Part shown: positions 5,770 through 22,811 of the stretch, in pieces
Layout: each line of letters starts with the position of its first letter
Position numbering within the stretch: position 1 is the first letter of the stretch
From: Candidatus Eiseniibacteriota bacterium
Lineage (GTDB): Bacteria; Eisenbacteria; RBG-16-71-46
Length of the DNA: 58,306 nt
NCBI GenBank assembly: GCA_035691845.1
Contig: DASSIN010000161.1
Span: 1-58,306, forward strand
Direction: 5' to 3'
Position numbers and translations under genes: made by a program
Notes under the pieces: model-generated
The model's input: only the letters and a program-made list of their open reading frames with translations
What the model was told of the DNA's origin: nothing
Database searches by the model: none

Positions 5770-7308
5770 ATGACACCCACTCGCGAACACCCGGGCCGCG
5801 CGGCGGCCGCGCTGGCGCTGACGCTGGCGCTCGGCGCCGGCCGGGCGCACGCCGCGCCGCCGGCGTTCACGCTGTTCGGCTGGGTGAGTCCGCCGCCCGC
5901 CTACACCACGGACGCCCACGTGGCCGAGATGGCGGCGGCCGGGCTCACGCTGATGCTGCCCGCCCAGGACGACTCCGGGCGGGTCGAGGACAACCGCGTG
6001 CGCCTCGACCTGGCGGCCGCGCACGGGCTGAAGTGCATCGTGTGGGACAACCGCTTCGAGCGCGTGGCGAGCCTGGGCGACACCACGGCGGCCGGCGGAG
6101 CGCTGCTCGATTCCATCGTGGCCGACTATCGCGACCATCCGGCGATGTTCGGCTACTACCTGGGCGACGAGCCGACGCGCGACCTGTGGCCGCTGCTCGG
6201 GCGGCTGTTCGCCGAACTGCACGCGCGCGACCCGGTCCATCCGGCGTGGAACAACCTGCTCGGTCGGATCGTCTATCCCGACACGGCCAGCTTCCACGCC
6301 GAACTGCACGACTACGTCGCGGCCGTGCATCCGGCGGTGCTGTCCGACGACCACTACGATTTCGCGGTCGACGGCGACGTGCACGAGTTCTTCGAGAATC
6401 TCTCCGGCCTGGCGGCCGAGGCGCGCGGCGACGGCCTGCCGTTCTGGGTCACGGTGCTGCTCGTCCAGCACACCGGGTTCCGGCAGCCGACGCCCGCGAT
6501 GCTGTCGTGGCAGGCGGCGATGGCGGTGGCGTACGGCGCGCGGGGCGTTGGCTACTTCACGTGGTGGACGCCGCAGCCGGTGTCGTTCTACACGTTCGCG
6601 CCCGCCGTGATCGACACCGACGGGCGGCAGACCGCGTGGTATCCGTTCCTCGAGTGGTTCGATCCCGCCCTGCGCGCGGCGGGGGAGACGCTGGCGCCGC
6701 TCGCATGGCGGGCCACGCTGCACGCTGGCGGAACGCCGCCCGGCGCGCAGCCGTTCGTGCCCGACGCGGACCTCGCCGGCGTCCAGGGCCGCGCCGCGAT
6801 CGGCGAGTTCGCGGACGCCTCGGGCCGGCGCACGGTGATGGTGGTGAACGCCGATTCGCTGGCGCCGCAGCGCGTGACGCTGGCGTTCGCGCCCGTGTTC
6901 GATCTCGAACGCCTGGGTGGTGCCCAGGGGAGCTGGGGTCCGATCGCGGTGCCCGGCGACGGCACCGTGCCGCTCGACCTGCCGGCTGGCGGGTTCGCGG
7001 TGCTGCGGTTCCGCGGACTTTCGGCGGTTTCACCCACCGGGATGGCCCGGTTGACTGCCATCCCGTCACCCGCGCGCGGCCGCGTCTCCCTGGCAGTGTC
7101 CGGGGCGCTCGAAGCCGGCCAATTGGAGGTGCTGGACGCCGCGGGGCGCAAGGTATGGTCGACCCGAACGCGTGCCGGAGACGTCACGTTGGCATGGGAG
7201 GGACAACGCGACGGGGCGGGCTTCGCGGCCCCGGGGGGCTATTTCGCCCGACTGACGACCCGGCAGGGCGTTGCGACGACGCGCTTCGTTTGGCTCGGGA
7301 AACACTGA
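5770..7308 (+). CDS. Secreted glycoside-hydrolase-like TIM-barrel protein with FlgD/T9SS-like CTD
   Basis: Signal peptide ending AHA; GYYLGDEP, VLSDDHYDF, AYGARGVGYF; CTD 'IPSPARG...VLDAAGRKV...WEGQRDGAGFAAPGGYFARL'. Confidence 0.75.
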   Translation: MTPTREHPGRAAAALALTLALGAGRAHAAPPAFTLFGWVSPPPAYTTDAHVAEMAAAGLTLMLPAQDDSGRVEDNRVRLDLAAAHGLKCIVWDNRFERVASLGDTTAAGGALLDSIVADYRDHPAMFGYYLGDEPTRDLWPLLGRLFAELHARDPVHPAWNNLLGRIVYPDTASFHAELHDYVAAVHPAVLSDDHYDFAVDGDVHEFFENLSGLAAEARGDGLPFWVTVLLVQHTGFRQPTPAMLSWQAAMAVAYGARGVGYFTWWTPQPVSFYTFAPAVIDTDGRQTAWYPFLEWFDPALRAAGETLAPLAWRATLHAGGTPPGAQPFVPDADLAGVQGRAAIGEFADASGRRTVMVVNADSLAPQRVTLAFAPVFDLERLGGAQGSWGPIAVPGDGTVPLDLPAGGFAVLRFRGLSAVSPTGMARLTAIPSPARGRVSLAVSGALEAGQLEVLDAAGRKVWSTRTRAGDVTLAWEGQRDGAGFAAPGGYFARLTTRQGVATTRFVWLGKH

Positions 7309-7338
7309 TCTTGGACCTTGCGACTGCCGATATTTCTC

Positions 7339-7366
7339 TTGACGAACCCGCTGCCCAGGCGAGAAT
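7339..7366 (+). promoter_or_regulatory. Candidate sigma70 promoter for 7591..8331
   Basis: TTGACG (7339-7344), 16-nt spacer, GAGAAT (7361-7366) in a locally AT-richer patch. Confidence 0.4.
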
Positions 7367-7590
7367 TTCAAGGAAGGAAATGCGCAGGTTCCGGTGCGGT
7401 CGTCCCATGGATCGGGTTCGCTTGTCCGCATTCGCGCGGGCGGGCACGGCCGGACCCCCCACCTCGGGACGGCGCCGGGCTCCGCAGATCGCGCGGGGTC
7501 GAATTGGGTAGCGGCTCAGATGAAGAAACGGATGTCTCCAGCTGGCCTGCATCTTCGCCTCGTCGTCTTCCAAACACCCAAGGAGGAATC

Positions 7591-8331
7591 ATGAAGAAGT
7601 CTCTACTCCTCACCGGCGCCATGATGCTGTTCGCCGCCGCCGCGTTCGCGAGCGGGGTGAACCTGACGTGGTCGTCCACCGGTTGCTGGACCGAAGATCC
7701 GCATGCGAACAAGGCGTTCGCGTGCAACTCGAACACCGGCAGCAACGTGCTCACCTGCTCGTTCGCGCCCGCCAACGACGAGCCCACGTTCGTGGGCATC
7801 GAGAGCATCGTCGATCTGCAGGCGGACGCCGCGACCGTGCCCGCGTGGTGGGAGTTCTTCTCGGGCGGCTGCCGTTCGACGGCGCTGTCGGCCAGCGCGG
7901 ACTTCACGACCGCCTCGCAGGTGTCGTGCGTTGACGTGTTCGCGGGCCTCGCGGGCGGCGGCATCACCGCGTACAAGACCATGGCCAACTTCGTCGGCGT
8001 GCCCGAGGTGTTCACGCCTTACGGCGGGCGCATCAAGGCGGCATTCGCGGTGGCGACCGAGGCTCCGCTCACGGCCGGCACCGAGTACTACGCCGACAAG
8101 ATGTCGATCAGCAACGCCAAGAGCACCGGCACGGGTTCGTGCGCGGGCTGCGCGACCGGCGTGACGATCGTGCTGAACCAGATCCGCTCGGGCGAGACCT
8201 CGGGTGCCTTCGAGATCCTGAACAACGCCATCAGCAGCCAGTGCGTGACCTGGCAGACCAGCAGCATCTCGTGCGCCGCGGTGCCGGTGCACAACAGGAG
8301 CTGGGGCCAGATCAAGTCGCTGTACCGGTAG
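7591..8331 (+). CDS. Secreted Cys-rich hypothetical protein with C-terminal SWGxIKxLYR motif
   Basis: AAGGAGG RBS, classical signal peptide (MKK...AAFA), 9 Cys, ends VPVHNRSWGQIKSLYR*, followed by a terminator hairpin. Confidence 0.9.
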   Translation: MKKSLLLTGAMMLFAAAAFASGVNLTWSSTGCWTEDPHANKAFACNSNTGSNVLTCSFAPANDEPTFVGIESIVDLQADAATVPAWWEFFSGGCRSTALSASADFTTASQVSCVDVFAGLAGGGITAYKTMANFVGVPEVFTPYGGRIKAAFAVATEAPLTAGTEYYADKMSISNAKSTGTGSCAGCATGVTIVLNQIRSGETSGAFEILNNAISSQCVTWQTSSISCAAVPVHNRSWGQIKSLYR

Positions 8332-8349
8332 TCATTCGCATCAGGCGCG

Positions 8350-8385
8350 AGGCGGCCGCCCGCAGGGGCGGCCGCCTTCGTGTTG
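8350..8385 (+). terminator. Intrinsic terminator-like hairpin
   Basis: Perfect 12-bp stem AGGCGGCCGCCC (8350-8361) / GGGCGGCCGCCT (8366-8377), 4-nt loop, then TCGTGTT; 18 nt after the stop. Confidence 0.75.
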
Positions 8386-8437
8386 GGGGGCCGATCGCCG
8401 CGTGCCAATTGCACGCCGCCTGGGGCATGCTTCCGCC

Positions 8438-9151
8438 GTGACCCGCGCCCGCGCATCGCTCGCTTCGCTGTCGCGCGCCATCGTGCGCTGCGAGCGCTGT
8501 CCCCGGCTGCGCGCGTGGTGCGGCGAGGTGGCGAGCGTCAAACGCCGCGCGTACCGTGACGAGACCTACTGGGGCCGCCCGGTCCCCGGGTTCGGCGATC
8601 CGCACGCCCGGCTGCTGGTCGTGGGGCTCGCGCCCGCGGCGCACGGTGGCAATCGCACGGGCCGCGTGTTCACGGGCGACTCCAGCGGCGACTGGTTGTA
8701 CGAGGCGCTGCACCGGTTCGGGTTCGCGAGCCAGCCGCAGTCGGTGAGCCGCGACGACGGGCTGACGCTGAATGACGCGTGGATCACCGCCGCCGCGCGC
8801 TGCGCGCCGCCCGACAACCGTCCGACGCCAGCCGAGCTCGAGACGTGCGGCCGGTGGCTCCAAGCCGAGCTGGCGCTGCTCGAGCGCGTGCGCGTGGTCG
8901 TCACCCTGGGCCGCATCGCGCACGAGCGCTGGCTGCGCGCGGCGGGGCACTGGCGGCGCCCGGCCGCGGCGCGACCGAAGTTCGCGCACGGCGCCGAGTG
9001 CCGGATCGAGGACGGCACCTGGCTGATCGCCTCGTACCACCCGAGCCGCCAGAACACCCAAACGGGCCGGCTCACGCGCGCGATGTGGCACGAGGTGTTC
9101 CGCCGCGCGCGCGCGCGCCTCGAACCCGGCGGCCCGCGCGATCGCGCTTGA
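8438..9151 (+). CDS. udgB: Uracil-DNA glycosylase family 5 (UdgB, 4Fe-4S type)
   Basis: CERCPRL, YWGRPVPGFGD, GLAPAAHGGNRTGRVFTGDSSG, RCAPPDNRP, SYHPSRQNTQTGRL. Start could be 8402 or 8438. Confidence 0.93.
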   Translation: MTRARASLASLSRAIVRCERCPRLRAWCGEVASVKRRAYRDETYWGRPVPGFGDPHARLLVVGLAPAAHGGNRTGRVFTGDSSGDWLYEALHRFGFASQPQSVSRDDGLTLNDAWITAAARCAPPDNRPTPAELETCGRWLQAELALLERVRVVVTLGRIAHERWLRAAGHWRRPAAARPKFAHGAECRIEDGTWLIASYHPSRQNTQTGRLTRAMWHEVFRRARARLEPGGPRDRA

Positions 9152-9185
9152 CGGCCGCCGCCGGGCGGGCGCAAGGTGCGCGCAT

Positions 9186-9342
9186 CGTTCGGGTGCCCGC
9201 ATTCGCGGGTGAAAAGGGAAGGGGGTGCGAATCCCCCGCGGTCCCGCCACTGTGATGGGCTTCCCGGGTTCACGACGCCACTGTTCGCAAGAATGGGAAG
9301 GCGAGCCCGGGTGACGCTCTCAGTCAGGAAACCTGCCCGGGC
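9186..9342 (+). ncRNA. Cobalamin (AdoCbl-class) riboswitch
   Basis: Ordered hallmark elements AAAAGGGAA-GGGGGTGCGAATCCCCC-GCGGTCCCGCCACTGTGA ... GCCACTG ... TGGGAAGGC ... AGTCAGGAAACCTGCC, upstream of a TonB-dependent receptor. Confidence 0.93.
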
Positions 9343-9407
9343 TGTACGAGCCTGTCTGCTCCGGTGAAGAGCGGCGCCCGATCGAGCCCACGTTCCCGTG
9401 GCTCCCG

Positions 9408-9440
9408 AGGTCCCGTTCGCGGCCGCGAGCGGGGCCTTTC
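9408..9440 (+). terminator. Riboswitch expression-platform terminator hairpin
   Basis: 13-bp stem AGGTCCCGTTCGC / GCGAGCGGGGCCT (three G-U pairs), loop GGCC, followed by TTC; lies between aptamer and GTG 9461. Confidence 0.65.
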
Positions 9441-9460
9441 GATTGGGCGCGCGCGACGCC

Positions 9461-11569
9461 GTGATCGGACTCCTGCTGCTGGCCGTGCTCGCCGTTGCGG
9501 CGCGCGATTCGCTCACGCCTGGGCCCTCGCCGGCCGCGCCCGATTCCGTCGGCGCGCGTTCCGCCGCGCCTTTCGCCGGCGCCCGCGACTCGGTGCTGCT
9601 GTTGCCCGAGGTGCGCGTGCGCGCGCCGCGCGTGCCGGCCGCCCTGCGCCGCATGCCGACGGTGTTCGTGCGCGAGCTGGACGCCGCCCATCAGCTGCAG
9701 GCGGTGCGCTCGCTGCCCGAGCTGCTGGCGCGGGCGCCGGGCGTCAGGGTGCTGGACTACGGCGGGCTCGGGGCGTTCAGCACGATCTCGCTGCGCGGCA
9801 GCGCGCCCGACCAGGTGGCGGTGCTGCTCGACGGCGTGCCGCTGACGGGCGCCGCCCGCGGCGTCGTCAACCTGGCCGATCTGCCCGCCACCGCGATCGA
9901 ACGGGTCGAGGTGTATCCCTACGCCGCGCCGCTGGCGTGGGGCGCGGCGCTGCCGGCGGGAGCGGTCAACTTCGTGACCGCCGCGGACGCGGGGCTGCGG
10001 GCGTTGCGCGTCGCGCGCGGCTCGTTCGGCACGTGGGAGACCGCGGGTGGCGCAGGCTGGGGCGGTCCCATGGCGAGCGCCGTGGTGCATGCCGGCTACC
10101 AGGGTTCGCGCGGCGACTTCCGCTACCTCGACACCCACGGCACGCCGTTCGAGCCCGGCGACGACGCGGAGCGCACGCGCGCCAACGATCGCTTCGACGC
10201 GTTCGCGGGCCTCGCCTCGCTGCGCGCGCGACGCGGCGCGTGGTTCGCGCGCGCGCACGAGGACCTGCTGCGCCACGCGCAGGGCCTGCCCGGGCTGGGC
10301 GCGGTGCCGGCGCTGCATGCGCGGCTCTCGATGCTGCAGTCGCTCACCGTGCTCGACGCCGGTCGCGACCCCTCCGCGGACTGGCCGGGCGTGGAGCTGG
10401 AAGCGGGCATGGACCGCCAGCGATCCCGGTTCCAGGACCTGGGCCTGCCGGATCGCGGCGAGCTGGGCGGCACGCGCCACGACACGGACGACATGATCGG
10501 CGCCGAGCGCGGGCGCGTCGCGGCGGTGGAGAGCTGGCGCGCGTGGCGGCTGGAGGGCGAGGCCGACGTGCGCGCCGAGCACGCGCGGCTCGCCGACGCC
10601 GCGGACGGGCTGCCCGATCCCGCGCCGAGCTGGCGCCACGCGCACGGCGCCTCGGGCACGCTGCGATGGTCGCCGTGGCGCGGCCGCATCACGCTGCAGG
10701 GCGCGCGCCGCTGGGAGCGCGTGACGGATCGCCTGCACCCGGCCGGCCTGGGCGTGCCCGCGATCGTGGTGGCGCGCGAGGTCGCCACGCCGCAGCTCGG
10801 CGCGCGCGTGGCGCTGCCGGCGGGATGCGAGCTGCGCGGCAACGCCACCGACGCCGAGCGCGTGCCCGATTTCACCGAGCTGTTCGGCAATCAGGGCACG
10901 GTGTCGGCCAACCCCCGGCTGCGCCCCGAGCGCGTCCGCTCGGCCGACGCCGGGCTCGCGTGGCACGGCGCGCGCGGCGCGTGGCGGGCGAGCGGCTCGT
11001 GGGCGCACTTCGGCTCGCGCGCCCGCGATCTCGTGCTGTGGTGGAAGAACTCGCCCAACACCGTGCAGGCGCTGAACGTGCTCTCGGCGCGCATCACGGG
11101 CGACGAGCTGGCATGGGCGGCGGCGACGCCGGGCGGGTTCGAGCTGTCCGCCTCCGGCACCTGGCAGGACGCGCGCAACACCGCCGCCGTGCCGGCGTAC
11201 GCCGCCGGCAAGGCGCTGCCGCTGCGCCCGCGCGCGCTGGTCTCGGCCGCGCTGGCGTGGCGCCACGGGCCGCTCGCGCTCTCCGCCGACCTCCAGCACC
11301 TCGGCGCCGACGCGCTCGACCCCGCCAACCGCCAGCGCGTGCCCGCCCGCACGCTCACCGGCGCCACGCTGGCGTGGGCGTGGGGCGCGGACGCGGCCGA
11401 CGCGCCCGCGGCCGACGCGCCCGCGGCGCGCAGCCTGACCGTGATGTTCGAAGTCCGCAATCTCGGCGACGTGCGCGCCTCCGATCTCGGCGGCTTTCCG
11501 CTGCCCGGTCGCAGCGTGTTCGTCGCGCTCGAAGCCCGCCATTCGCGTTCCCAGGATTCCGCGCCATGA
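9461..11569 (+). CDS. btuB: TonB-dependent receptor, probable cobalamin importer (BtuB-like)
   Basis: Plug motif ELLARAPGV...STISLRGSAPDQVAVLLDGVPL...IERVEV; barrel motifs PDFTELF, NPRLRPER, VRNLGD, LPGRSVF. Substrate inferred from the riboswitch. Start placed after the terminator hairpin. Confidence 0.85.
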   Translation: MIGLLLLAVLAVAARDSLTPGPSPAAPDSVGARSAAPFAGARDSVLLLPEVRVRAPRVPAALRRMPTVFVRELDAAHQLQAVRSLPELLARAPGVRVLDYGGLGAFSTISLRGSAPDQVAVLLDGVPLTGAARGVVNLADLPATAIERVEVYPYAAPLAWGAALPAGAVNFVTAADAGLRALRVARGSFGTWETAGGAGWGGPMASAVVHAGYQGSRGDFRYLDTHGTPFEPGDDAERTRANDRFDAFAGLASLRARRGAWFARAHEDLLRHAQGLPGLGAVPALHARLSMLQSLTVLDAGRDPSADWPGVELEAGMDRQRSRFQDLGLPDRGELGGTRHDTDDMIGAERGRVAAVESWRAWRLEGEADVRAEHARLADAADGLPDPAPSWRHAHGASGTLRWSPWRGRITLQGARRWERVTDRLHPAGLGVPAIVVAREVATPQLGARVALPAGCELRGNATDAERVPDFTELFGNQGTVSANPRLRPERVRSADAGLAWHGARGAWRASGSWAHFGSRARDLVLWWKNSPNTVQALNVLSARITGDELAWAAATPGGFELSASGTWQDARNTAAVPAYAAGKALPLRPRALVSAALAWRHGPLALSADLQHLGADALDPANRQRVPARTLTGATLAWAWGADAADAPAADAPAARSLTVMFEVRNLGDVRASDLGGFPLPGRSVFVALEARHSRSQDSAP
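11396..11425 (+). repeat. 15-nt in-frame tandem duplication (ADAPA x2) in a late loop of the receptor
   Basis: GCCGACGCGCCCGCG repeated exactly twice. Confidence 0.85.
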
Positions 11570-11601
11570 CCATGGCGCCCGTGATGCCGAACGAGGAGAC
11601 C

Positions 11602-13035
11602 ATGATGCCGTATCCGCGCCACACCCTCGCGCTGCTGCTGCTGGCCGCCACCGCCGTTTCCGCCCATGCCTCGACGCATGCCTACGTGCTCACCAGCGAC
11701 TACTCGAATGGCGGCGTGAGCGTGGCCGACCTCGCCACGCGCACGATGACACGCGACGTCGCCACCGTGTACGAGGACGCGGTCGAGCGCTGGTATCAGG
11801 GCAGGCTGTACGTCGTGAACCGCTACGGCGCCGACAACGTGCAGGTGATCGATCCGGCCGCCGGCTACGCCACCGTCAAGCAGTTCTCGGTCGGCAGCGG
11901 CAGCAATCCGCAGGACATCGCGCTGGTGTCGCCGACGCGCGCATACGTGTCGCGCCTGGGTTCGCCCGATCTGCTGATCGTGAACCCCACGACCGGCGCC
12001 ACGCTCGGCAGCGTGTCACTGGCGGCGTTCGCGGACGCCGACGGCAATCCCGAGGCGGCGCGCATGACGCTGGTGCCGCCGTTCCTGTTCGTGGCGCTGC
12101 AGCGGCTCACGAACTTCCAGCCGCAGCAGGCGGCGATGGTGGCGGTGGTGGACACGCGCGCCGACACGCTGTACGACACCGACCTCGCGACCCCCGGCGT
12201 GCAGGCGATCACGCTGCCGGCGAAGAACCCGGTCACCACGTTCACCGTGCTGCCCGACGGGGCGCCGTATCCCGATCTCCATCTGCTGATCGGCTGCGCC
12301 GGGGCCTACGGCGCGGCCGACGGCGGGATCGCGGACATCGTCGTCACCGGGCTGGCCGAGAACCCGCACCCGGCGATGGCGAGCGCGGGGCTGATCGCGA
12401 CCGAGGCCGCACTCGGCGGCGACGTGGTGGGCGTCGCCTACTATCTGCCGGATCACTCGTACGCCGTCGTCAGCGACGCGTCGTTCAACACCCGGCTCGT
12501 GGCATGGGATCCGCGCACCGGCGGCGTGGTCGGCACCGTCTACGATCCGGGCGGATTCTCGATCGCCGATGCCGCGGTGAACGACCGCCGCGAGCTGTGG
12601 GTGTGCGACAACGGCCTCGCCGCGCCCGGCGTGCGCGTGTTCCGCGCGGGCGCCGACAGCCTGCTCGCCGGCCCGCTCGATGCCGGCCTGCCGCCCGTCG
12701 GCGTCACCTTCGACGAGCTGGAGGACGTTCCGGCCGGCGTTCCAGGCCCGACGCCGCCCGCGTTCGCGCTCGCGCGGCCGACCCCAAACCCGGCGCTGCG
12801 TGTCGCGCATCTCGCGCTCGCGACGCCGCGCGACACGCGCGTGCGCGTTCAGGTGTTCGACGCCGCCGGACGTCGTGTCGCCACGCTGTTCGACGGCATC
12901 GCGCGAGCCGGAACCCTCGCGCTCGACTGGGACCTGAAGGATCGGTCCGGGAACGCGGTGGCGGCTGGGGTGTATGTCGTCCAGGCCGACGGCGAAGGGG
13001 CGAGATCGGAAGGGAAAATCGTCGTCCTGCGCTGA
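11602..13035 (+). CDS. YncE/BtuG-like beta-propeller with FlgD/T9SS-like CTD
   Basis: GAGGAG RBS; signal peptide ending AHA with no lipobox Cys; blades such as LYVVNRYGADNVQVID and NPQDIALVSPTRAYVSR; CTD PTPNPALR...VFDAAGRRVATL...WDLKDRSGNAVAAGVY. Confidence 0.85.
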   Translation: MMPYPRHTLALLLLAATAVSAHASTHAYVLTSDYSNGGVSVADLATRTMTRDVATVYEDAVERWYQGRLYVVNRYGADNVQVIDPAAGYATVKQFSVGSGSNPQDIALVSPTRAYVSRLGSPDLLIVNPTTGATLGSVSLAAFADADGNPEAARMTLVPPFLFVALQRLTNFQPQQAAMVAVVDTRADTLYDTDLATPGVQAITLPAKNPVTTFTVLPDGAPYPDLHLLIGCAGAYGAADGGIADIVVTGLAENPHPAMASAGLIATEAALGGDVVGVAYYLPDHSYAVVSDASFNTRLVAWDPRTGGVVGTVYDPGGFSIADAAVNDRRELWVCDNGLAAPGVRVFRAGADSLLAGPLDAGLPPVGVTFDELEDVPAGVPGPTPPAFALARPTPNPALRVAHLALATPRDTRVRVQVFDAAGRRVATLFDGIARAGTLALDWDLKDRSGNAVAAGVYVVQADGEGARSEGKIVVLR

Positions 13036-13489
13036 CACTCCGGGTTTTGGCCTTGCATTGCGGCAGAAAATGGGCGACAAACTGCCCCGCCGGGAGACAG
13101 AGTGTCGCGTGTCGCCGCAACGCCAAGGCGGCCGCGACGCTCCACGATCGATTCGCACGCGGGCCGTGACAGGCTGTCCCGATTCGCTACGGAACGCGTG
13201 CGATGGCGATGTGCCGCGAGGCCGCGCGGCATCGCGCAAGTCGTTCCACCCCAGGAGATTTCACCGGCTGCGAGAATTGCGGCTCGTTGGCCCCGTGCTT
13301 GCTGCGCGATGAGGCGGAAGTGACGGCCTCGCCGACGCCGCGCGCGGGCGTCATTTCGACCGGAGCGCGATTCGCGACCGGGCGCACGCCTGGTCAACCC
13401 CTGCGAACGTTCCTCCACACTCCGAAGCCACGCCGTTGCTGTTTCGGTCCGCCCCCGAGGGACTTGCTCGCCCTCCGCATGGAGGAATA

Positions 13490-14230
13490 TTGCGTTTTCG
13501 ACCCTTGCCGATGCTCCTCGTCGTTGCATGCGCAGCATGGCCGCTGCTCGCGCAAGGTTCCGAAATCGACTCCGATCCTTCGACTCCGCCCCCCGCCCCA
13601 GGCAGCCCTTCGCCCACGATCGCGCAGAGTCCCACCGGCAACGCCATCACCGTCACGCTGGCCTGGACGGCGCCCGGTGACGACAGCTTGAGCGGGATCG
13701 CGACCGCGTACGACATGCGCTACTCCAGCGCGCCGATCTACGACTGGAACTTCGGCAGCGGCACGAAGGTGATCGGCATGCCGGTGCCGGGCGCGCCCGG
13801 CACGCTGCAGTCGGTGGCGGTGTCGAACCTGCTGTCCGGCACCACCTACTACTTCGCCATCAAGACCGCCGACGAGCGCGGCAACTGGTCCGGGATCTCG
13901 AACGTCGTGGTCAAGACCGGCGGCACCGCGTCCACGCCGGGGATCGCGATGGGCGAGCTCGATTTCGCCGCGCCCAGCCCCAATCCGGCGCGTTCGAGCA
14001 CCAGCTTCCAGTTCGCGCTTCCGCACGAGGACCGCGTGCAGGCCGACGCCTTCGACATCATGGGCCGGCACGTGCGCACGCTGCTCTCCGGCACCAGGCC
14101 GGCGGGCCACGGCCAGGTGTCGTGGGACTTGAGCGACGAGGCGGGGGCCGCGCTGCCGGCCGGCATCTACCTGGTGCGCGCGACGCTCGGGAACCAGAGC
14201 TTCAACCGGCGCGTGGTCATCGTGAGGTGA
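13490..14230 (+). CDS. Secreted fibronectin type III + FlgD/T9SS-like CTD protein
   Basis: GGAGGA RBS before TTG 13490 gives an RFR-led signal peptide; Pro-rich linker; FN3 'LAWTAPGDD...YDMRYS...L.SGTTYYFAIKTADERGNWSGISN'; CTD PSPNPARS...WDLSDEAG...AGIYLVR. Confidence 0.85.
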   Translation: MRFRPLPMLLVVACAAWPLLAQGSEIDSDPSTPPPAPGSPSPTIAQSPTGNAITVTLAWTAPGDDSLSGIATAYDMRYSSAPIYDWNFGSGTKVIGMPVPGAPGTLQSVAVSNLLSGTTYYFAIKTADERGNWSGISNVVVKTGGTASTPGIAMGELDFAAPSPNPARSSTSFQFALPHEDRVQADAFDIMGRHVRTLLSGTRPAGHGQVSWDLSDEAGAALPAGIYLVRATLGNQSFNRRVVIVR

Positions 14231-14380
14231 CGTGGCGGCGCACGAGCGCCATTCGACGGCCGGGCGGCATCGGATCCTGCATCTCGCCATGCGGCCTGCT
14301 TCCGACCCGCCCGCGATCCGGGCCCCGGCATCCGCTGGGGCCCGTCTTGCTGCCGGCTCTGGCGTCCCTGCGCGCGGCGT

Positions 14381-16216
14381 TCAGCCGGCGAGCGTGATGC
14401 GGGTGGTGCAGCGTTCGCCCGGGATCGGCGCCACCAGGCGCGGGGCCGGGGCGCGCAGCGCGAACCGCGACGCCACCTCGCCGGGCTCGATCCGCCACGG
14501 ACCGGCGCCCTCGGCCTCGAACACGGCGCACACTGCGCCCACGCGCACGTCGGCGCGCGCCCCGGACAGGCGCGGTTCGGCGCCGGCGCCGAGCGGGAAC
14601 GCGAGCATGGCGTCGGCGCCGCGCACGCGGTCGCGCACCGTCATCGCCTGCGGCGTCACCTCCACCGCGCGCCAGTGCCATTCGCCGCTCCACCATTCGC
14701 ACCGCCAGCCGTCCTCCGCCGCCGCCACCTGCGCACGCGCGCCCCACAGGAACGGCCCCAGCGCGCGGCTCTGGCTGCGCCCGCCGAACGTCACGGTGGC
14801 GTGCGCCGGCGTCGAACGGCAGCGCTCGCGGGCGGCCGGATCGCCGTGGTACGCGAACGTGCCGGGATCGGCGATCACCGCGCGATCGCCGTGGTGGAGC
14901 GTGACCGACAGCGCATCGGCGTGGCCGTGCGCGGCCAGCGAGCCCAGGCCGAGCGGTCCGTGGTCGAACGTGACGAGCCAGGGTCCCTGCCGCCACACGG
15001 TGTAGCCGCCGGCGGGGAACGCGTGGCGACCGTCCCCGGCCGCGCGCGGCGCGGTCGTGCGGCCGGCGAGCACGCGCGCGAGCGCGGCATCGTCCGCCAG
15101 CGCCGGCTGGCCGAGCCAGGCGGCCAGGGCATCGCCCACGCGGTCGAGACGGGTGGCGTCGTCGCCGGCCAGCAGGATGCGGCCGTCGTCCTCGTCGCCG
15201 ACGTGCGGCATGCCGCCACCCGGCAGCCGGATCGCGCGCGCGAATTCCAGCGAGCGCGCGAGCCGCGCCCGCAGCGCGTCCGGCGCCTTGCGCCCGGCGG
15301 CTTCGCCCGCGATCAGCGCCGCCAGCGCCAGCTCCCACACGAACGGCAGGTAGCCGAACGCCTGCTCGGCGGGCACGCCGTCGTCCAGGATCTGGCGCGG
15401 CAGCTCGTGCGCGATGCCGGCGAGTCCGCGCTCCAGCAGCGGCTCGGCCGCCACCAGCGCCGGGAACGCGCCGCCCGCCACGGCGAGCGCGGCGTACTCC
15501 GCCAGCAGGTGGTTGTTGGCGCTCGAGCCCAGGCTCAAGTGATCGCGGCACCACAGTGCCTGCTGGCCCGCGAAGCTCGCCAGCTCGCGCGCGTCGAACG
15601 CGCGGCGCTCGCCCGGGTCCAGCAGCGCCAGCGTCCAGGTCAGCGCGATCGTCCGCACCGCCATCTCGATCCCGCTCGTGTGATGGATCCCGAACCCGAC
15701 CGGCTGGCGCTGCACGAAGTCGTGCGCCCAGCGCGCGGCGCGCGCGATCGGGGCGGGATCGCCGGTCACGTGGCCGGCGAGCGCGAGCACCGGCAGCGTG
15801 GTGAGCCGGCCCAGCTCCCACGTCCACTTGGGATCGCCCGCGGCGGCGGCGTGGTAGTCGAGCGTGCGCGCGGGCTGGGCGGGCCAGCGCGCGCCGGAGC
15901 GCGGATCGGCGTCCCACGCCGGCGGATCGGCGAGCCGCACCGGGCGCCCGAACGCGCTCCACTCGCCGCGGCCGAGCGCGCTCGCCTGCTCGATCGCCGC
16001 CTCGAATCCGGCCGCGCCGCGCCCCGGCCGGTGCGCGAACCGGTCGAGCCGGTCGGGCGCGGAGGCGCGCGGCAGCATCTTGTCGGCGAGCGCTCCGGCC
16101 GGACCCAGGTACCACGCGGCTCCGGCGCGATCGCGCAGCGCGATGCCGGCGCGGTGCAGCACCTCGCCCGGGCTCATCGCGCGCAGGCGATCGAGCTTCC
16201 AGCGCGCGCCGCTCAC
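14381..16216 (-). CDS. Heparinase II/III-family protein (alginate-lyase-like N-terminal region)
   Basis: WELGRL, SSANNHLLAE, HVGDEDDG, HGHADALS, DPGTFAY, RSTPAH; GTG start overlaps the GT4 stop. Confidence 0.85.
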   Translation of the reverse strand: MSGARWKLDRLRAMSPGEVLHRAGIALRDRAGAAWYLGPAGALADKMLPRASAPDRLDRFAHRPGRGAAGFEAAIEQASALGRGEWSAFGRPVRLADPPAWDADPRSGARWPAQPARTLDYHAAAAGDPKWTWELGRLTTLPVLALAGHVTGDPAPIARAARWAHDFVQRQPVGFGIHHTSGIEMAVRTIALTWTLALLDPGERRAFDARELASFAGQQALWCRDHLSLGSSANNHLLAEYAALAVAGGAFPALVAAEPLLERGLAGIAHELPRQILDDGVPAEQAFGYLPFVWELALAALIAGEAAGRKAPDALRARLARSLEFARAIRLPGGGMPHVGDEDDGRILLAGDDATRLDRVGDALAAWLGQPALADDAALARVLAGRTTAPRAAGDGRHAFPAGGYTVWRQGPWLVTFDHGPLGLGSLAAHGHADALSVTLHHGDRAVIADPGTFAYHGDPAARERCRSTPAHATVTFGGRSQSRALGPFLWGARAQVAAAEDGWRCEWWSGEWHWRAVEVTPQAMTVRDRVRGADAMLAFPLGAGAEPRLSGARADVRVGAVCAVFEAEGAGPWRIEPGEVASRFALRAPAPRLVAPIPGERCTTRITLAG

Positions 16217-17412
16217 GCGCGCTCCGCGATCGCGCGCGCCGGCAGCGGCGCCAGGGGCGGCACGGCGGTCGCGGGATCGCCGGGCAGGAACTCGAGCGGG
16301 CTGCCGGCGAGCACGGCGCGCACGTGGCCCGCGAGCCGCGCGCAGATGCGGTCGGGATGGAACAGGGCGATGTCGTGGGTGAGCGCGTCCGCCAGTCGCT
16401 GGCGCAGCGCGGGGTCGCCCACCAGCCGCTCGATCGCGTCCGCCAGCGCGGCCACGTCGCCCGAAGGCACGAGCAGGCCGTTCGCGCCGTCGCGCACCAG
16501 ATCGGGGATCGCGCCGACCGGCGTCGTGACCACCGCCAGCCCGAACGCGCCGGCCTCGTGCAGCACCACGGGCACGCCCTCGGCGTGGCTCGGCAGCACG
16601 AACAGCGTCGCGCGCCGGTACTCGCGCCACAGCGCCTCGCCCATCTTGAGCCCGGCCATCTCCACCTGCTGCTCCAGGTTCAGCGCCGCGCGCCGGGCCA
16701 GCACCGCCGCCTCGTCGCCGGGGCGCTGCGGCGGCCCCACGATCGTGAGCGGCACGACGAGCCCGCGCTCGCGCAGCCGCGCCAGCGACTCCAGCAGCTC
16801 CCCCGTGCCCTTGCCGGCGCCGAACTGCCCGACCACGAGCGCGCGCAACTCGCGCGCCCGCTCCGGGCGCGGCGCCGCGGCCGCGGCCAGCACCTCGCGG
16901 CGGAACGTGGACGGCACGACGAACGTGGGACAGCGGCAGAACGCGGCCAGCAGCGGGCGCCACGGCTCGCCCAGCAGCAGCATGCGGTCGAACGCGCCGA
17001 ACATGGCGCGCATCCACGCGCGCTCGGGTCCGCGGCGCGCGAGCGTGCGCGCGATGTCGCCGGCGTGCTGGTGCCCGATCACGCGCGCGCCGGCGCGGCG
17101 CACCACGCCCGCCAGCGCGAGGTCGCGCAGCACGGCCGAGAAGTTGCCCGCCACCGGCACGTACGCGACGTCCGGCCGGAACCGCGCCGCCCGCGTCGCG
17201 GTGCGGGAGATGTGGCGCGCCGCCCACGCGAAGTTGGCGGCGTCGAACCGACCCTGCGTCTCCTTGGGGCGGTGCTTGGTGATGTCGGCGTGCGCCAGCT
17301 CGAACGCGTCGAAGGCGTGCGACTCCAGCACCGCCTGCGTCATCGTCTCCACGCCGCCGACGGGCGGAGGGAGCGGCCCCACCACGAGCAGCCGCGGTTT
17401 CAGCGCCGCCAC
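16213..17412 (-). CDS. Glycosyltransferase family 4
   Basis: PPPVGGVE N-terminus; LFVLPSHAEGVPVVLHEAGAFGLAVVTTPVGAIPDLVRDGANGLLV (E-x7-E motif). Confidence 0.92.
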   Translation of the reverse strand: MAALKPRLLVVGPLPPPVGGVETMTQAVLESHAFDAFELAHADITKHRPKETQGRFDAANFAWAARHISRTATRAARFRPDVAYVPVAGNFSAVLRDLALAGVVRRAGARVIGHQHAGDIARTLARRGPERAWMRAMFGAFDRMLLLGEPWRPLLAAFCRCPTFVVPSTFRREVLAAAAAPRPERARELRALVVGQFGAGKGTGELLESLARLRERGLVVPLTIVGPPQRPGDEAAVLARRAALNLEQQVEMAGLKMGEALWREYRRATLFVLPSHAEGVPVVLHEAGAFGLAVVTTPVGAIPDLVRDGANGLLVPSGDVAALADAIERLVGDPALRQRLADALTHDIALFHPDRICARLAGHVRAVLAGSPLEFLPGDPATAVPPLAPLPARAIAERA

Positions 17413-17464
17413 CGCCCACGATCCACGCGCATCGCGAACCGCCCGCGATCCACGCGCATCGCGA
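17411..17464. repeat. 27-nt tandem duplication, 1 mismatch, at the GT4 start
   Basis: ACCGCCC(A/G)CGATCCACGCGCATCGCGA at 17411-17437 and 17438-17464. Confidence 0.85.
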
Positions 17465-17479
17465 CGCGCGGCGAGCCGC

Positions 17480-20059
17480 TCACCGCAGCACCACGATCGG
17501 CCGCGTGATCGCTTGCGCTCCCGCCGCGAGCCGCGCCAGGTAGACGCCGGGCGCGACCGGCCGGCCGAGATCGTCGGCCAGATCCCACGCCAGCGCGTAG
17601 CGGCCGGCGGCGTACGGCGCGGCCGCCAGCGTGCGCACGCGGCGGCCCTGCACGTCGAGCACGTCGAGCGCCACGCGCGCGGCGCGCGGCAGATCGAACG
17701 CCAGCCGCGCCAGCCCCCGCGCCGGGTTGGGCGAGGGGCGATCGAACGCCAGGCGCGCCGCGGGCGGCGCGCCCGGCACGGCGGTCGGCACCGGCTGCAC
17801 GGCGGGATCGAACACCAGCACGCGCAGCGAGTCCAGGTTCATGCCGTCCAGGTCGAGGCCGGAATCGGAGCGCGAGCGCAGCCGGATGCGGATCTTCGTG
17901 CGGCCCGGGCCCGCGAACGGCGACAGGTCCACCCGGTCCGCGCTCCACAGCCAGCGGCCGCCGGTCCATTCGGGCACGCCGTTCGGGATCGAGTTCCCGG
18001 ACTGCGTGCCCACCGCGCTCGCGCGCGCCGGAAGCGGCGTCCACGTCACCGAATCGGGGCTGGCCTCGAACACCGCGCCATCGTAGAACTGCTCCAGGTT
18101 GAAGCGGTCGTCGAGCAGCGCCCAGGCGTGCACGCCGTGCGACAGATCGAGCGGGGCGCTCGCGATCAGCGCGGCGCTCATGTTGGTGGGATAGATGCCC
18201 GCCGGGCTGTCCGAGGCGTAGCGGCTCGGGTGGCGCGGATCGTTCTGCACGATTCCGTAGCCGCCGGAGGCGCTCCACGCGCCGAGCGTGTTGAACGGCT
18301 CGATCCGCAGCGTGGTGGGCGTGCCGAGCAGCACTTCGACCGTGTCGCGCGCGAAGCATTCGCCGGCCCCCGAGAACTCCAGCGCGAACCGCACCAGCCG
18401 GCCCGGCGTCACCGTGTCGGAGCACGACACCGCGAACGTGGCGCCGCCGATGGCGTCGGCGCTGGTGCGGCTCGCCATCGCGGGATAGCTGACCGTGGCC
18501 GTGTCCACGAACACGCCCGCATCCAGCGGGGACAGCGTGGCGGTGAGCGGCGCGGGCGTGGCGGCCAGGCCCAGGTTGCGCGCGCGCACCGACAGGTGCG
18601 CGCGGAAGCCGGCGTCGAGCGCGCCCTCCACGATCGCCGAGCGCTCGACCCGCGGGTAGGGGCCGGCGATCGCGGCCACGAACCACGCCTTGCGCAGGTT
18701 GTCCTCGGCCAGCGGCACGATGCGCGAGGGCGCGGGCCAGAACCCGTCGTCCGCGGTGCCGATCTCGGGCGTCCACGTGAACCCGCGCGGCTTGGCGAGC
18801 GTGTCGCCGTACACCCAGTCGTTGAACTCGCCGTTCACGCGGTACAGCACGCGCGAGGAGTTGCCGCTGGAGTAGCCGCTGCCGATCGTGGCCGCGTCGT
18901 TCCATTCGTAGAACGCCTGCGAATCGGGCGCGGCCGCCGCCTGGTAGCCCCATGGGTGCAGGAACAGATCGCTGTAGGTGTGGTACGCGAGCCCGGTCCT
19001 GGGCTGCAGCCGGACGACGACGTCGCGTTGCGCCTGTGTCTCCGGCTCCGACACCGGGGCCGGGCCGCGATAGTCTTCGGTCGAGCTGTCCGGCTCCGAG
19101 CCGATGTCGTCGAGCCCCCACATGAAGCTGAAGTTGCGGTTGATGTCCACGCCGTCGAAACCGTAGTCCACGATGCCGTTGCCGTTGACGTCGCGCACGT
19201 TCTTGCGGTGGAATCCGCCGCCCGCCGGATGCGTGATGCGGTTCAGCTCGTAGCCATCCGGGTTCACCACCGGCACGATGTACAGCCGGCGCGTGTCGAG
19301 CAGCGAGGTGGCGAACGGATCGCTGCCGTACTTCGACAGGATGTCGTGCACGAAGTAGAGCAGCGCCTGCATCCCCTCCGGCTCGCGCGCGTGGGTCAAG
19401 GCGCTGTAGAACACGACCGGCCGCGGATCGGGGCCGGTCACGCGCCGCCCCAGCGCGAGCCCCCAGATCGGCCGGCCCTGCAGCGTGTAGCCCAGCGTGT
19501 CGAGCTGGTCGGCGACGATGTCGTGCGTGTCGGCGGCCACCAGCGAATCGAGCTCCATCTTCACTTCGTCGAGCGTCCAGTAGCCGCCCATGCTGCCGGA
19601 GCCGAACGGCGGCAGGCTCTGCGCGCGGAACGCGCCGTCCGGAGCGGTCGCGCTGATCACGCGCGCGGGCATGGCACGCGGTCGGGCGGCCAGCTCGCGC
19701 GCGGCGCGCGCGGCCGCGGAGCGCGCCGGGTCGGGATCGAGCACCTCGGTCGCGGCGCCGAGCGCGGCCAGCTTCGCCGCGTCGCCCGGCCACTCCAGCA
19801 CGTCCGCCCACGCGCCGCCGCGCACGCCCACCACGTCGAGCCCGGCCGCGAGCACGCGATCGAGCGTGAGCGCCGCCGTCAGCCGGACGCGCACGAGCTG
19901 CGGCTCCGAGACCGCGATCGCCGCGTTGCGCCACGCGATCGCGGACGCCGGAACCACGGCGCCTGCGCCCGGGGCCGGACCCAGGGCGAGCGCCAGCGCG
20001 AACGCCGCGCCCGCCCGGCAGGCGGGCCGCGGCGCCGGGGCCGGGCGGGGGAGCGTCAT
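17480..20059 (-). CDS. M14 zinc carboxypeptidase with Ig-like/jelly-roll accessory domains and FlgD/T9SS-like CTD
   Basis: HAREPE (H-x2-E), VNPDGY, RKN, GVDINRNF, YHTYS, PEIG; CTD PSPNPARG...WDLADDLGRPVAPGVYLARL. Confidence 0.92.
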   Translation of the reverse strand: MTLPRPAPAPRPACRAGAAFALALALGPAPGAGAVVPASAIAWRNAAIAVSEPQLVRVRLTAALTLDRVLAAGLDVVGVRGGAWADVLEWPGDAAKLAALGAATEVLDPDPARSAAARAARELAARPRAMPARVISATAPDGAFRAQSLPPFGSGSMGGYWTLDEVKMELDSLVAADTHDIVADQLDTLGYTLQGRPIWGLALGRRVTGPDPRPVVFYSALTHAREPEGMQALLYFVHDILSKYGSDPFATSLLDTRRLYIVPVVNPDGYELNRITHPAGGGFHRKNVRDVNGNGIVDYGFDGVDINRNFSFMWGLDDIGSEPDSSTEDYRGPAPVSEPETQAQRDVVVRLQPRTGLAYHTYSDLFLHPWGYQAAAAPDSQAFYEWNDAATIGSGYSSGNSSRVLYRVNGEFNDWVYGDTLAKPRGFTWTPEIGTADDGFWPAPSRIVPLAEDNLRKAWFVAAIAGPYPRVERSAIVEGALDAGFRAHLSVRARNLGLAATPAPLTATLSPLDAGVFVDTATVSYPAMASRTSADAIGGATFAVSCSDTVTPGRLVRFALEFSGAGECFARDTVEVLLGTPTTLRIEPFNTLGAWSASGGYGIVQNDPRHPSRYASDSPAGIYPTNMSAALIASAPLDLSHGVHAWALLDDRFNLEQFYDGAVFEASPDSVTWTPLPARASAVGTQSGNSIPNGVPEWTGGRWLWSADRVDLSPFAGPGRTKIRIRLRSRSDSGLDLDGMNLDSLRVLVFDPAVQPVPTAVPGAPPAARLAFDRPSPNPARGLARLAFDLPRAARVALDVLDVQGRRVRTLAAAPYAAGRYALAWDLADDLGRPVAPGVYLARLAAGAQAITRPIVVLR

Positions 20060-21244
20060 CTAACGGTTCAGCGTGCGCGCGAGGAACTCGAGCGCCGGGC
20101 GCTGCACCATGGCCGGGTTGAGCGCGTGCGTGCCGTTCGGCACGTACTTGTCCTCGACGGCAACGCCCTGCGCGCGCAGCGCGGCGGCGAGACCGTGCGC
20201 CTGCGCCACCGGAACGTCGGCGTCCTTGTCGCCGTGCGCGATGAACACCGCCGCCTTCACCTTCGCCGCGGCGAGCAGCGGGGCGCGCGCGCGCCACGCC
20301 GCGCTGTCGCTGCCGGCCTCGGCCGCGATCGCCTGGCCGATCGCGCCACGCGCGTCCGCGCGCCACGTCGCCCACGGATCGTAGATCCCCGATTGCGCGA
20401 TCACGCCCGCGACGTCGTGGCGCTGCGCGGCGAGCAGCATTGCGACCGTCGCGCCGCGCGAGATGCCCCATACGATGAGCCGGGCGCGATCGACGCCCGG
20501 TGTCGCGGCCAGCGCGTCCAGCGCGGCGGAGGCCGCCGCCACCGACGCCGGCCCCGCGAAGTCGGCCGGCCCGTCCGAGCCGCCGTAGCCGGGCAGGCTG
20601 ACGAGCACGACGTGGAAGCCATGCGCCGCCAGCGCGCGCGCGACCGACATCAGCCGCCGTGCGTCCGAGCCCTCGCCGTGGATCAGCACCATGCCGCCGC
20701 CGTGGGAGGAGTCGGGCGCCACCCGCACCAGCTCGACCTTGCGGCCGCCCGCGCGCACGAACTCCGACGGATGCGAATCCGAATAGGCGCCGGGCAGCAC
20801 TTCCTCGGTGATCGTGCGCGTCCAGTGGTGGCCCTGCTGGTCGTGCATCAGCAACGTGAAGGTCAGCGTGGCGTGCTCGGTGGCCGCCGGACCGCTGTAC
20901 TGGAAGTAGCCATCCTCGCCTCCGCTCAACGACGGATGCAGCTGCAGCAGGAACGTCAGGTTCGTGCGCGTGGTGGCGGGGCCGTGGATGCGCGCGGCGT
21001 CGTGATCGGCGACGTCGAGGAACAGGCTGTCCAGGTAGAGCCCACGCCCGGTGGGGTTCTGGATGTGCATCGGCACCGACCACTGCAGGTCGTCCGTGGC
21101 GTGCGTCGTCTTGTCGTCGCCGTAGAACGTCGGCGCCTGGTCCGCGGTTTCAGCGGCCGCGACGCGGGCGGGGTGCAGCAGGGCGGCGGCGAGGGCGAGG
21201 GGCAGGAGCCAGGGCAGCCGATCGGTCACGGGAGCCTCGAACAT
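20060..21244 (-). CDS. Secreted alpha/beta hydrolase (S9-like) with unannotated N-terminal domain; start 21244 or 21229
   Basis: Signal peptide; GISRG nucleophile elbow, HGDKD, THAL triad motifs; stop abuts the ATG of the M14 gene. Confidence 0.85.
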   Translation of the reverse strand: MFEAPVTDRLPWLLPLALAAALLHPARVAAAETADQAPTFYGDDKTTHATDDLQWSVPMHIQNPTGRGLYLDSLFLDVADHDAARIHGPATTRTNLTFLLQLHPSLSGGEDGYFQYSGPAATEHATLTFTLLMHDQQGHHWTRTITEEVLPGAYSDSHPSEFVRAGGRKVELVRVAPDSSHGGGMVLIHGEGSDARRLMSVARALAAHGFHVVLVSLPGYGGSDGPADFAGPASVAAASAALDALAATPGVDRARLIVWGISRGATVAMLLAAQRHDVAGVIAQSGIYDPWATWRADARGAIGQAIAAEAGSDSAAWRARAPLLAAAKVKAAVFIAHGDKDADVPVAQAHGLAAALRAQGVAVEDKYVPNGTHALNPAMVQRPALEFLARTLNR

Positions 21245-21272
21245 TGGGGGGACGGGAGCGTGCGGACCGAGA

Positions 21273-21292
21273 ATTCTAGCATGCGCTAGCAT
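21273..21292. promoter_or_regulatory. Back-to-back -10 boxes of divergent genes
   Basis: TAGAAT on - strand (21273-21278) and TAGCAT on + strand (21287-21292) in a 57-nt divergent gap. Confidence 0.45.
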
Positions 21293-21301
21293 GGAGCCGG
21301 C

Positions 21302-22060: not shown

Positions 22061-22088
22061 TCGCGCCGGCGTGGCGCCGGCGCGCGCG

Positions 22089-22718: not shown

Positions 22719-22782
22719 GAGAACGTCGAGTCTAGCACGTGGCCGGAGTCGTCAGCCCGTGGCCATTCCGAACTTCATTAAG

Positions 22783-22811
22783 TTGCAGACCAGATCAGCC
22801 GAAAATATACT
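22783..22811 (+). promoter_or_regulatory. Sigma70 promoter giving a probably leaderless lrp mRNA
   Basis: TTGCAG (22783-22788), 17-nt spacer, TATACT (22806-22811); ATG begins 7 nt later at 22818 with no SD. Confidence 0.7.

Follow-up and report, generated by a model that had tools for sequence, protein, structure and literature searches.

The gene examined here lies at positions 7591 to 8331 of the forward strand of contig DASSIN010000161.1 of the Candidatus Eiseniibacteriota assembly GCA_035691845.1, within the 58,306-nucleotide stretch of DNA that was analysed (referred to below as the window). It encodes a protein of 246 amino acids, P0001, and stands as a unit with its own putative expression signals, the features of which are as follows.

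7339..7366 (+), sigma-70-like promoter match (TTGACG-16-GAGAAT), 225 nt upstream of the start codon
7580..7587 (+), ribosome-binding site AAGGAGGA, 3 nt before the ATG at 7591
7591..7653 (+), signal peptide (residues 1-21, MKKSLLLTGAMMLFAAAAFA|SG), type I in appearance, without a lipobox
7654..8277 (+), cargo domain (residues 22-229), a Cys-rich, predicted all-beta sandwich of an unnamed family, with a conserved CAGC
8278..8298 (+), tag linker (residues 230-236, AVPVHNR), immediately after Cys228 (8272-8274)
8299..8328 (+), tag core SWGQIKSLYR (residues 237-246), ending the protein
8329..8331 (+), stop codon TAG
8350..8377 (+), 12-bp GC hairpin, terminator-like but without a T-run

The promoter is a consensus match only (1 site found against 0.1 expected). 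The downstream hairpin has a 12-bp GC stem and a GCAG loop with an RNA dG of -41.4 kcal/mol (z = -4.1), and none of 200 shuffled sequences folds as well, although it is followed by UUCGUGUU rather than a T-run and a consensus terminator scan does not call it. The N-termini of all 35 homologues align with the same pattern of K/R, hydrophobic stretch and AxA, and in the AlphaFold (AF2) model this segment has a pLDDT of about 53. There are nine cysteines, at 32, 45, 56, 94, 113, 184, 187, 218 and 228, with CAGC at 184-187; six are invariant (32, 45, 94, 184, 187 and, at >=90%, 113 and 228 nearly so) across the 35 homologues. The first-pass annotation of this locus, which had noted the strong ribosome-binding site, the signal peptide, the nine cysteines, the hairpin and an unusual ending, is confirmed, although its suggestion that the protein is abundant remains unproven.

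The body of P0001 matches nothing in Pfam, NCBIfam or the PDB at the sequence level. Modelled by AF2 with a 35-sequence alignment it has a mean pLDDT of 85.8, rising above 90 across the strands, and Foldseek finds only weak cohesin-like or Ig-like matches (TMq <0.37). In contrast, residues 230-246 have a pLDDT of 43-53 and are not docked on the cargo, and the model leaves them as a flexible tail with a short free helix at 238-245 (pLDDT <50). The last 16 residues are VPVHNRSWGQIKSLYR, and this is the stretch to which the first-pass annotation had drawn attention as a candidate C-terminal sorting signal. A sequence logo of 142 tagged proteins shows, however, that the conserved module is about 19 residues rather than 16, and reads C-[PA]-[VT]-P-[VT]-[ER]-x-[ST]-[ST]-W-G-x-[IV]-K-[AS]-[LM]-Y-R, with the Cys at -9..-11 present in 48% of instances. 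Among homologues found by whole-protein search W, K and Y are invariant and G, L and R are at least 90% conserved.

To ask whether this ending is peculiar to one family we searched the six-frame translation of the 3.35-Mb genome with the expression [STA]WG.[ILVM]K..[YFW], and found 19 hits against 0.09 expected from composition. All 19 lie in ORFs with signal-peptide-like N-termini, and 16 of 19 lie within 2 residues of the stop. A profile HMM of the tag, which gives 40.6 bits for P0001, extends the number to 26 tagged ORFs with a clean gap in score (>=16 bits against <9 bits); all of these tags lie 0-30 aa from a stop and all of the ORFs look exported, as judged by eye and by a permissive heuristic rather than by a signal-peptide predictor. 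P0001 belongs to the largest tagged family in the genome, with ten paralogues, all tagged, but most tagged cargo is unrelated to it and includes NHL/ScyF-like proteins, M10 and myxosortase-dependent-type metalloproteases, LTD (two), CHRD, a DVUA0089-family protein and several unnamed families.

The tag is also widespread beyond this genome. An exact DNA pattern hits 177 of 206 genomes of the phylum while a reversed control pattern hits none, synonymous codons vary freely, and the tag occurs in genomes from 33% to 73% GC, which is consistent with selection at the protein level. It is present in MAGs labelled Latescibacterota, Krumholzibacteriota, Zixibacteriota, Cloacimonadota, Aegiribacteria, Gemmatimonadota and Fibrobacteraceae, and at least 2,211 representative clusters at 50% identity match it at E <= 0.001. 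In 149 of the 150 best database matches the motif ends within 4 residues of the end of the protein. Extra internal or tandem copies, which the first-pass annotation would have counted against a sorting signal if the motif occurs internally, do occur in 7 of these 150 (about 5%), mostly in one lipoprotein family and always in addition to a terminal copy. R is the last residue in 128 of 142 instances, and the rare extensions beyond the tag are mostly R or K. Moreover, tagged genes use TAG or TAA more, and the leaky TGA stop less, than untagged genes in the same loci (TGA in 31% against 53%; p about 0.001), suggesting that the free C-terminus matters. No Pfam model hits the tails of 19 tagged proteins, nor does any model of NCBIfam release 20.0 at E <= 0.01, and we found no paper describing the motif in full-text literature searches.

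The same cargo families alternate between this tag and a T9SS CTD. In L081, a sequence from another genome, the tagged ORF at 6290-6985 is 38% identical over 220 aa to the adjacent ORF at 4077-6293, which carries a CTD, and L075, L052 and L069 relate to L040 841-3957 in the same way; no protein carries both. Within the genome studied here no such alternating paralogues were found at E 1e-5, so that alternation was seen only in other genomes.

We propose, with a probability of about 0.5, that the last ~19 residues of P0001 are a portable C-terminal address tag, made of a flexible Pro/Val/Thr linker, often starting at a Cys, followed by the near-invariant 10-mer [ST]WGx[IV]Kx[LM]YR-COOH, and that it serves for docking or anchoring in the cell envelope. 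In this model the signal peptide takes the protein across the inner membrane and is removed, as inferred from sequence, and the cargo, which is probably disulfide-rich, folds while the tail stays unstructured, as in the AF2 model. We infer that the terminal 10-mer is then bound as a short linear motif, either as an amphipathic helix or as an added strand, by a conserved envelope component, with the free C-terminus normally being part of what is read, and that binding holds the cargo at a defined location, either the outer membrane and cell surface or the wall. This would be non-covalent docking rather than a translocation signal in itself, and the two to four tandem or internal copies in a lipoprotein family (for example P0037 and P0044) would raise avidity. 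Sorting or anchoring is thus an inference from position, portability and type of cargo, and strict terminal position is also what a cleaved sorting signal or a secretion signal would show.

Attempts to find a partner gene gave no candidate. All-against-all clustering of ORFs within 6 kb of the 26 tagged genes, and within 120 foreign 8-kb loci, gave only tagged paralogues, CTD proteins, Ser/Thr kinase-TPR proteins, amidohydrolases and PD40 proteins, none of them plausible as a reader. In a limited genome subtraction, 809 of 2,053 crudely called genes of this genome have no tblastn hit in the tag-poor genome G204. The 60 cleanest exported candidates among them were tested as 100-aa fragments, joined in two chimeric 3,000-aa queries, against five distant tag-rich genomes, and only a DnaB fragment, a false positive of the signal-peptide filter, was present in all five. 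This screen excluded multi-pass membrane proteins and proteins over 650 aa, and G204 still has three degenerate tags, so the presence/absence profile is not clean. The dedicated processing enzyme suggested by the first-pass annotation was likewise not found in the 120 neighbourhoods or the subtraction. Exosortase (PF09721) is absent from this genome and from 8 other tag-rich genomes and present in several tag-poor ones, a patchy distribution that is uncorrelated with the tag, and we reject it as the enzyme.

An alternative explanation, less likely but not excluded, is that the tail is a minimal or adaptor-mediated T9SS signal which delivers Sec-exported cargo to the type IX secretion system, either directly to SprA/PorV or by binding a CTD-bearing carrier, so that tagged proteins would be exported across the outer membrane like CTD proteins. 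Consistent with this, homologous cargo alternates with the CTD, which is an export signal, no separate machinery was found in the screens above, and 60% of the CTDs of this genome also end in hydrophobic-hydrophobic-Arg. SprA (TIGR04189) scores above the cut-off in this genome, in 37 of 38 panel genomes, among them the 19 that are tag-rich, and in 15 of 15 tag-bearing genomes of other phylum labels, and all labelled hosts belong to the T9SS-bearing FCB group. This co-occurrence is uninformative, however, because the whole clade has T9SS, and SprA and 74 CTD proteins persist in the tag-poor G204, so T9SS alone does not explain the tag. Known T9SS signals are folded Ig-like domains of 70-100 aa, a profile comparison of the tag with the CTDs of this genome gives no similarity, which also rejects the tag as a truncated CTD, and lipoprotein cargo and tandem or internal copies make little sense for a translocation signal.

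It is also conceivable, though unlikely, that the terminal 10-mer is a receptor-independent membrane anchor, an in-plane amphipathic helix like the PBP5/6 C-terminal anchor or the MinD membrane-targeting sequence, which would stick exported proteins to a phospholipid leaflet facing the periplasm. The short helix predicted by AF2, a helical hydrophobic moment of 0.41-0.56 (0.45 for the MinD targeting peptide), a net positive charge with W/I/L/Y on one face and the avidity that tandem copies would add all accord with this. Nevertheless only about 9 residues could be helical, their mean hydrophobicity is negative (-0.1 to -0.2), and lipid-binding helices tolerate sequence drift, whereas here W, G, K, Y and R are near-invariant across phyla and cargo and the motif is held at the very end with stop-codon bias, which points to a protein reader.

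Somewhat less likely still is a peptidoglycan tether, non-covalent or formed covalently by an L,D-transpeptidase through the conserved Lys, in which tagged lipoproteins, some of which combine an N-terminal lipid anchor with 1-4 C-terminal tags, would bridge the outer membrane and the wall. The ending K-x-L-Y-R may resemble that of Braun's lipoprotein, apparently ...KYRK, but the last residue of the tag is Arg rather than Lys, and the conserved Lys is internal and is replaced by Gln in 5 of 26 tags of this genome. An assembly tag, donated to a neighbouring subunit or to a cohesin-like scaffold formed by the P0001 family itself, is the least likely reading, as the cohesin matches of the P0001 body (probability up to 1.0, TMt 0.58), though found in the largest tagged family, are weak and of a generic beta-sandwich type and most tagged cargo is unrelated to P0001. 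Nor does the tag resemble the outer-membrane beta-signal recognised by BAM, which is a C-terminal aromatic residue ending a beta-barrel, as the terminal residue is Arg and the cargo is of soluble type.

C-terminal sorting signals such as LPXTG, PEP-CTERM and the T9SS CTD have each led to a sorting machine and to a rule for predicting surface proteomes. The present tag is as abundant and as conserved, with 5-28 copies per genome, yet is uncatalogued, and its recognition lets thousands of hypothetical proteins of Eisenbacteria, Latescibacterota, Krumholzibacteriota, Cloacimonadota and relatives be marked as one envelope-addressed class, besides giving a defined peptide bait for finding the reader and raising the question of how T9SS-bearing bacteria place proteins that lack a CTD. 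A more far-reaching possibility, which we put forward only tentatively, is that the tag defines a third architectural class of prokaryotic C-terminal sorting signal, a bare linear peptide with neither a membrane-spanning anchor nor a folded domain, read from its free end by a dedicated, still unidentified envelope receptor or enzyme that would be shared by at least six FCB-group phyla and would organise 1% or so of the proteome (20-30 proteins per genome) at the cell envelope.

Of the systems already known, the type A CTD of T9SS (TIGR04183/PF18962, and the FlgD_ig-like form seen in this genome) is among the closest, being found at the C-terminus of Sec-exported proteins with unrelated cargo in the same genomes, with about 139 CTD ORFs here. 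It differs in being a folded Ig-like domain of about 80-90 aa where the tag is about 19 aa and predicted to be unstructured, and hhalign of the tag against the 139 CTDs gives a probability of only 0.13%. The tripartite signals, PEP-CTERM/exosortase, MYXO-CTERM/myxosortase, GlyGly-CTERM/rhombosortase and LPXTG/sortase (Haft et al., bioRxiv 10.1101/2023.06.07.544157), are likewise short, portable signatures at the C-terminus of many paralogous exported proteins, with dozens per genome scattered around the chromosome, and the ScyF-like NHL, MXAN_2677/2678-type metalloprotease, DVUA0089, LTD and CHRD cargo families carry those signals elsewhere; a Cys often precedes the motif, as in MYXO-CTERM, although in only about half of the tags. 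The catalogued members have a signature motif, a transmembrane helix and an Arg cluster, whereas after the linker of the tag only SWGxIKxLYR follows, which contains a Lys and has no transmembrane helix; most instances end in a single Arg, and RR or RK endings are rare. Finally, like the amphipathic anchors of PBP5/PBP6 type and perhaps the wall-attachment end of Lpp, the tag is a short, basic, amphipathic C-terminal peptide on an exported protein, with a possible helix predicted, but it is much more strictly conserved than lipid-binding helices, is shorter, ends in Arg rather than Lys, and is portable across hundreds of cargo families.

Analysis of the sequence shows that the gene encodes a 246-aa protein, P0001, preceded by AAGGAGGA 3 nt upstream of the ATG. 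The N-terminus, MKKSLLLTGAMMLFAAAAFA|SG, looks like a type I signal peptide, and the protein contains nine Cys, including CAGC at residues 184-187, and ends in ...SISCAAVPVHNRSWGQIKSLYR. The two features are as follows.

7591..8331, + strand: open reading frame encoding P0001
8350-8377: 12-bp GC stem

The GC stem is far more stable than shuffled sequences (dG -41.4 kcal/mol, z = -4.1), although it lacks a T-run and is not called by a consensus terminator scan. The first-pass annotation, which had described the ribosome-binding site, signal peptide, nine Cys, 12-bp hairpin and C-terminal ending, is therefore confirmed in every detail.

For P0001 Pfam gives nothing, and NCBIfam gives only a chance-level hit on the signal peptide. 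A whole-protein search finds 34 homologues, among which the only source name is a hypothetical protein of Candidatus Eisenbacteria. In the alignment of these proteins five Cys are invariant and two more are at least 90% conserved, and every member ends in [ST]WGx[IV]KxLY[RH]. AlphaFold2 prediction using this alignment gives a confident all-beta sandwich for residues 22-229 (mean pLDDT 85.8), whereas residues 230-246 have pLDDT values of 43-53 and form a short free helix at 238-245 that is not packed on the body. Foldseek against the PDB gives only weak cohesin/Ig-like matches, with TMq below 0.37, and a profile search of PDB sequences gives nothing. The cargo is therefore an unnamed, disulfide-rich beta-sandwich, as predicted by the model.

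To ask whether the C-terminal tail is confined to this protein we searched the genome from which it comes (G000; 3.35 Mb in 316 contigs at 72% GC). A six-frame regular-expression search finds 19 instances against 0.09 expected, all of them in ORFs of 205-324 aa with signal-peptide-like N-termini. An HMM built from the 19 tails finds 26 ORFs at 16 bits or more, with the next score below 9 bits, and all 26 matches lie 0-30 residues from the stop with none internal. In five of the 26 (contigs C159, C313, C193, C170 and C117) the otherwise invariant Lys is replaced by Gln (TWGRVQSLYR and similar), which could be a tolerated substitution or a functional subclass. P0001 has ten paralogues in the genome, all tagged, but the cargo is otherwise unrelated, and includes an NHL propeller whose best NCBIfam hit is the PEP-CTERM protein ScyF, an M10 metalloprotease that hits the 'myxosortase-dependent metalloprotease' family, two lamin-tail domains, a CHRD domain, a DVUA0089-family protein and several unnamed families. 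In a CHRD-domain protein (contig C272:27539-28213) the tag, TWGRVKSMY, is followed by a 31-residue Cys-rich extension (...MTAGCPATPGCCE) instead of the stop. No Pfam or NCBIfam model touches the tail itself.

The tag is also widespread beyond this genome. A degenerate DNA pattern for WGx[IV]Kx[LIMV]YR-stop hits 177 of 206 genomes of the phylum, typically 5-28 times each, whereas the same pattern read backwards hits none of the 206. Third-codon positions and stop codons vary freely among the hits, so the conservation is at the protein level. Record titles name Candidatus Eisenbacteria/Eiseniibacteriota, Latescibacterota, Krumholzibacteriota, Zixibacteriota, Cloacimonadota, Aegiribacteria, Effluviviaceae, 'uncultured Fibrobacteraceae' and 'uncultured Gemmatimonadota' MAGs, and many unnamed MAGs. 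The only title from a large cultured phylum was one Cellulosilyticum record, and it is a 20-codon chance ORF. All 119 ORFs from the first scan end in the tag, Cloacimonadota examples at 33-44% GC read ...NQNRSWGRIKSIYR, and fifteen genomes reached through these loci carry 1-28 copies each. In three genomes there are tandem arrays of 4-7 tagged genes spaced about 1 kb apart, with near-identical tag codons (G015:C3:410000-416179, G003:C8:141726-144788 and G215:C9:82777-85168). When a profile of the last 36 residues of 110 tagged proteins was searched against 1.84 billion cluster representatives, 2,211 proteins were found at E <= 0.001, which is a lower bound because about 45 bits is the ceiling for so short a profile. 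In 149 of the best 150 of these the last motif ends within 4 residues of the end of the protein.

Across 142 instances the consensus of the tag is C(-9..-11; 48%)-[PA]-[VT]-P-[VT]-[ER]-x-[ST]-[ST]-W-G-x-[IV]-K-[AS]-[LM]-Y-R, and Arg is the last residue in 128 of 142. Although positions W, G, K, Y and R were fixed by the search pattern in the foreign set, they are also invariant or at least 90% conserved in the pattern-independent family alignment. Read as a helix, W, I, L and Y fall on one face, with a hydrophobic moment of 0.41-0.56 and a negative mean hydrophobicity. There is also a bias in stop codons. Among 127 tagged genes in the loci from the first scan of the genome collection and 17 in G000, TAG (51%) and TAA (18%) are used more, and TGA (31%) less, than in untagged genes of the same loci (35%, 12% and 53% respectively; Fisher p = 0.0009). 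This fits selection for a precisely terminated C-terminus, although the background comes from a crude gene caller.

Several lines of evidence bear on what the tag might do. First, it sits where homologues carry other addresses. The NCBIfam names for the cargo point to PEP-CTERM and MYXO-CTERM families, and in other genomes the same cargo occurs with either the tag or a T9SS-type CTD. For example, in the foreign locus L081 the tagged ORF at 6290-6985 and its neighbour at 4077-6293, which has a CTD, are 38% identical over 220 aa, and no protein carries both endings. Second, seven of the 150 best database matches carry extra copies of the tag. P0037 ends in four tandem motifs 8-10 residues apart, P0044 and P0170 end in two, P0053 and P0069 are duplicated modules each ending in the motif, and P0036 has one copy directly after its lipobox and one at the end. 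Five of the seven were scored as lipoproteins by our lipobox heuristic and P0069 also reads as one from its sequence, and only P0139 has a plain signal peptide. The six lipoproteins belong to one NTF2-like family with a weak DUF4440 hit, which forms a six-gene tandem array in another locus (L077:1649-7850) and has a single member in G000 with a degenerate tail (contig C100, minus strand, ending ...TWGYINALYSAPVF). Repeated binding epitopes and lipid-anchored cargo are what one expects of a docking motif, in which repeats add avidity, and are not expected of a translocation signal; it is for this reason that we favor docking or anchoring over T9SS export. Third, the near-invariance of five residues across phyla and cargo argues for a protein reader rather than simple lipid binding.

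We did not succeed in identifying such a reader. No non-cargo family recurs next to tagged genes in 26 loci of this genome or in 120 foreign loci. There is a conserved three-gene module in which a ~1,100-aa Ser/Thr kinase-NB-ARC/AAA-TPR (STAND-like) protein is followed by two divergent tagged secreted paralogues (G000 contig C181:10589-15559, outside the window; also L067:195-5457, L024:2-4299 and L021:624-2014). The kinases are 45-50% identical across loci, and this may be a regulated pair of tagged proteins. We also subtracted from G000 the gene content of G204, a genome from the tag-poor family f18, and tested 60 exported candidates against five distant tag-rich genomes, which left only a DnaB false positive. 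However, this screen was partial, as it used crude gene calls, excluded multi-pass and large proteins and lacked 10% of G204, which is itself not strictly tag-free, and a core envelope machine shared by tag-poor lineages therefore remains possible.

Taking these observations together, the tail is a real, portable and strongly selected C-terminal module of exported proteins, which we could find in no library or paper. That it acts as an envelope address is a strong inference, and our best guess is that it works by receptor-mediated docking, to which we assign a probability of about 0.5. The main alternative, an adaptor-mediated T9SS route, appears to be unlikely but cannot be dismissed.

The genome is rich in T9SS-type cargo, with about 139 ORFs carrying an FlgD_ig-like CTD, eight of them at 5770..55700 of the window, and 80 of the 133 whose CTD reaches the protein end (60%) finish in Arg, usually as hydrophobic-hydrophobic-Arg. 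The tag is not a shortened CTD, as profile-profile comparison gives a probability of 0.13%. Nor does T9SS explain the tag, as SprA is present in all 38 panel genomes, including 19 chosen because the pattern is absent or nearly so, and in 15 of 15 tag-bearing genomes of other labels; T9SS may be necessary but is not sufficient. In G204 (contig C1), SprA is kept, as are 74 CTD proteins in the 2.8 of 3.12 Mb that was read, but there are only three tags, all degenerate at otherwise conserved positions (...IKEQYR, ...IKNTYK and ...IKKLYQ), which looks like decay of the tag system in this lineage. The tag is also not exosortase-dependent, as exosortase is absent from G000 and from eight other tag-rich genomes and is present in several tag-poor ones; in G204 the gene is split into three frames at 1475964-1476715. 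Finally, the catalogued small C-terminal sorting domains all share a signature motif, a transmembrane helix and an Arg cluster (Haft et al., bioRxiv 10.1101/2023.06.07.544157), whereas the tag has no transmembrane segment and is not a tripartite signal of this type.
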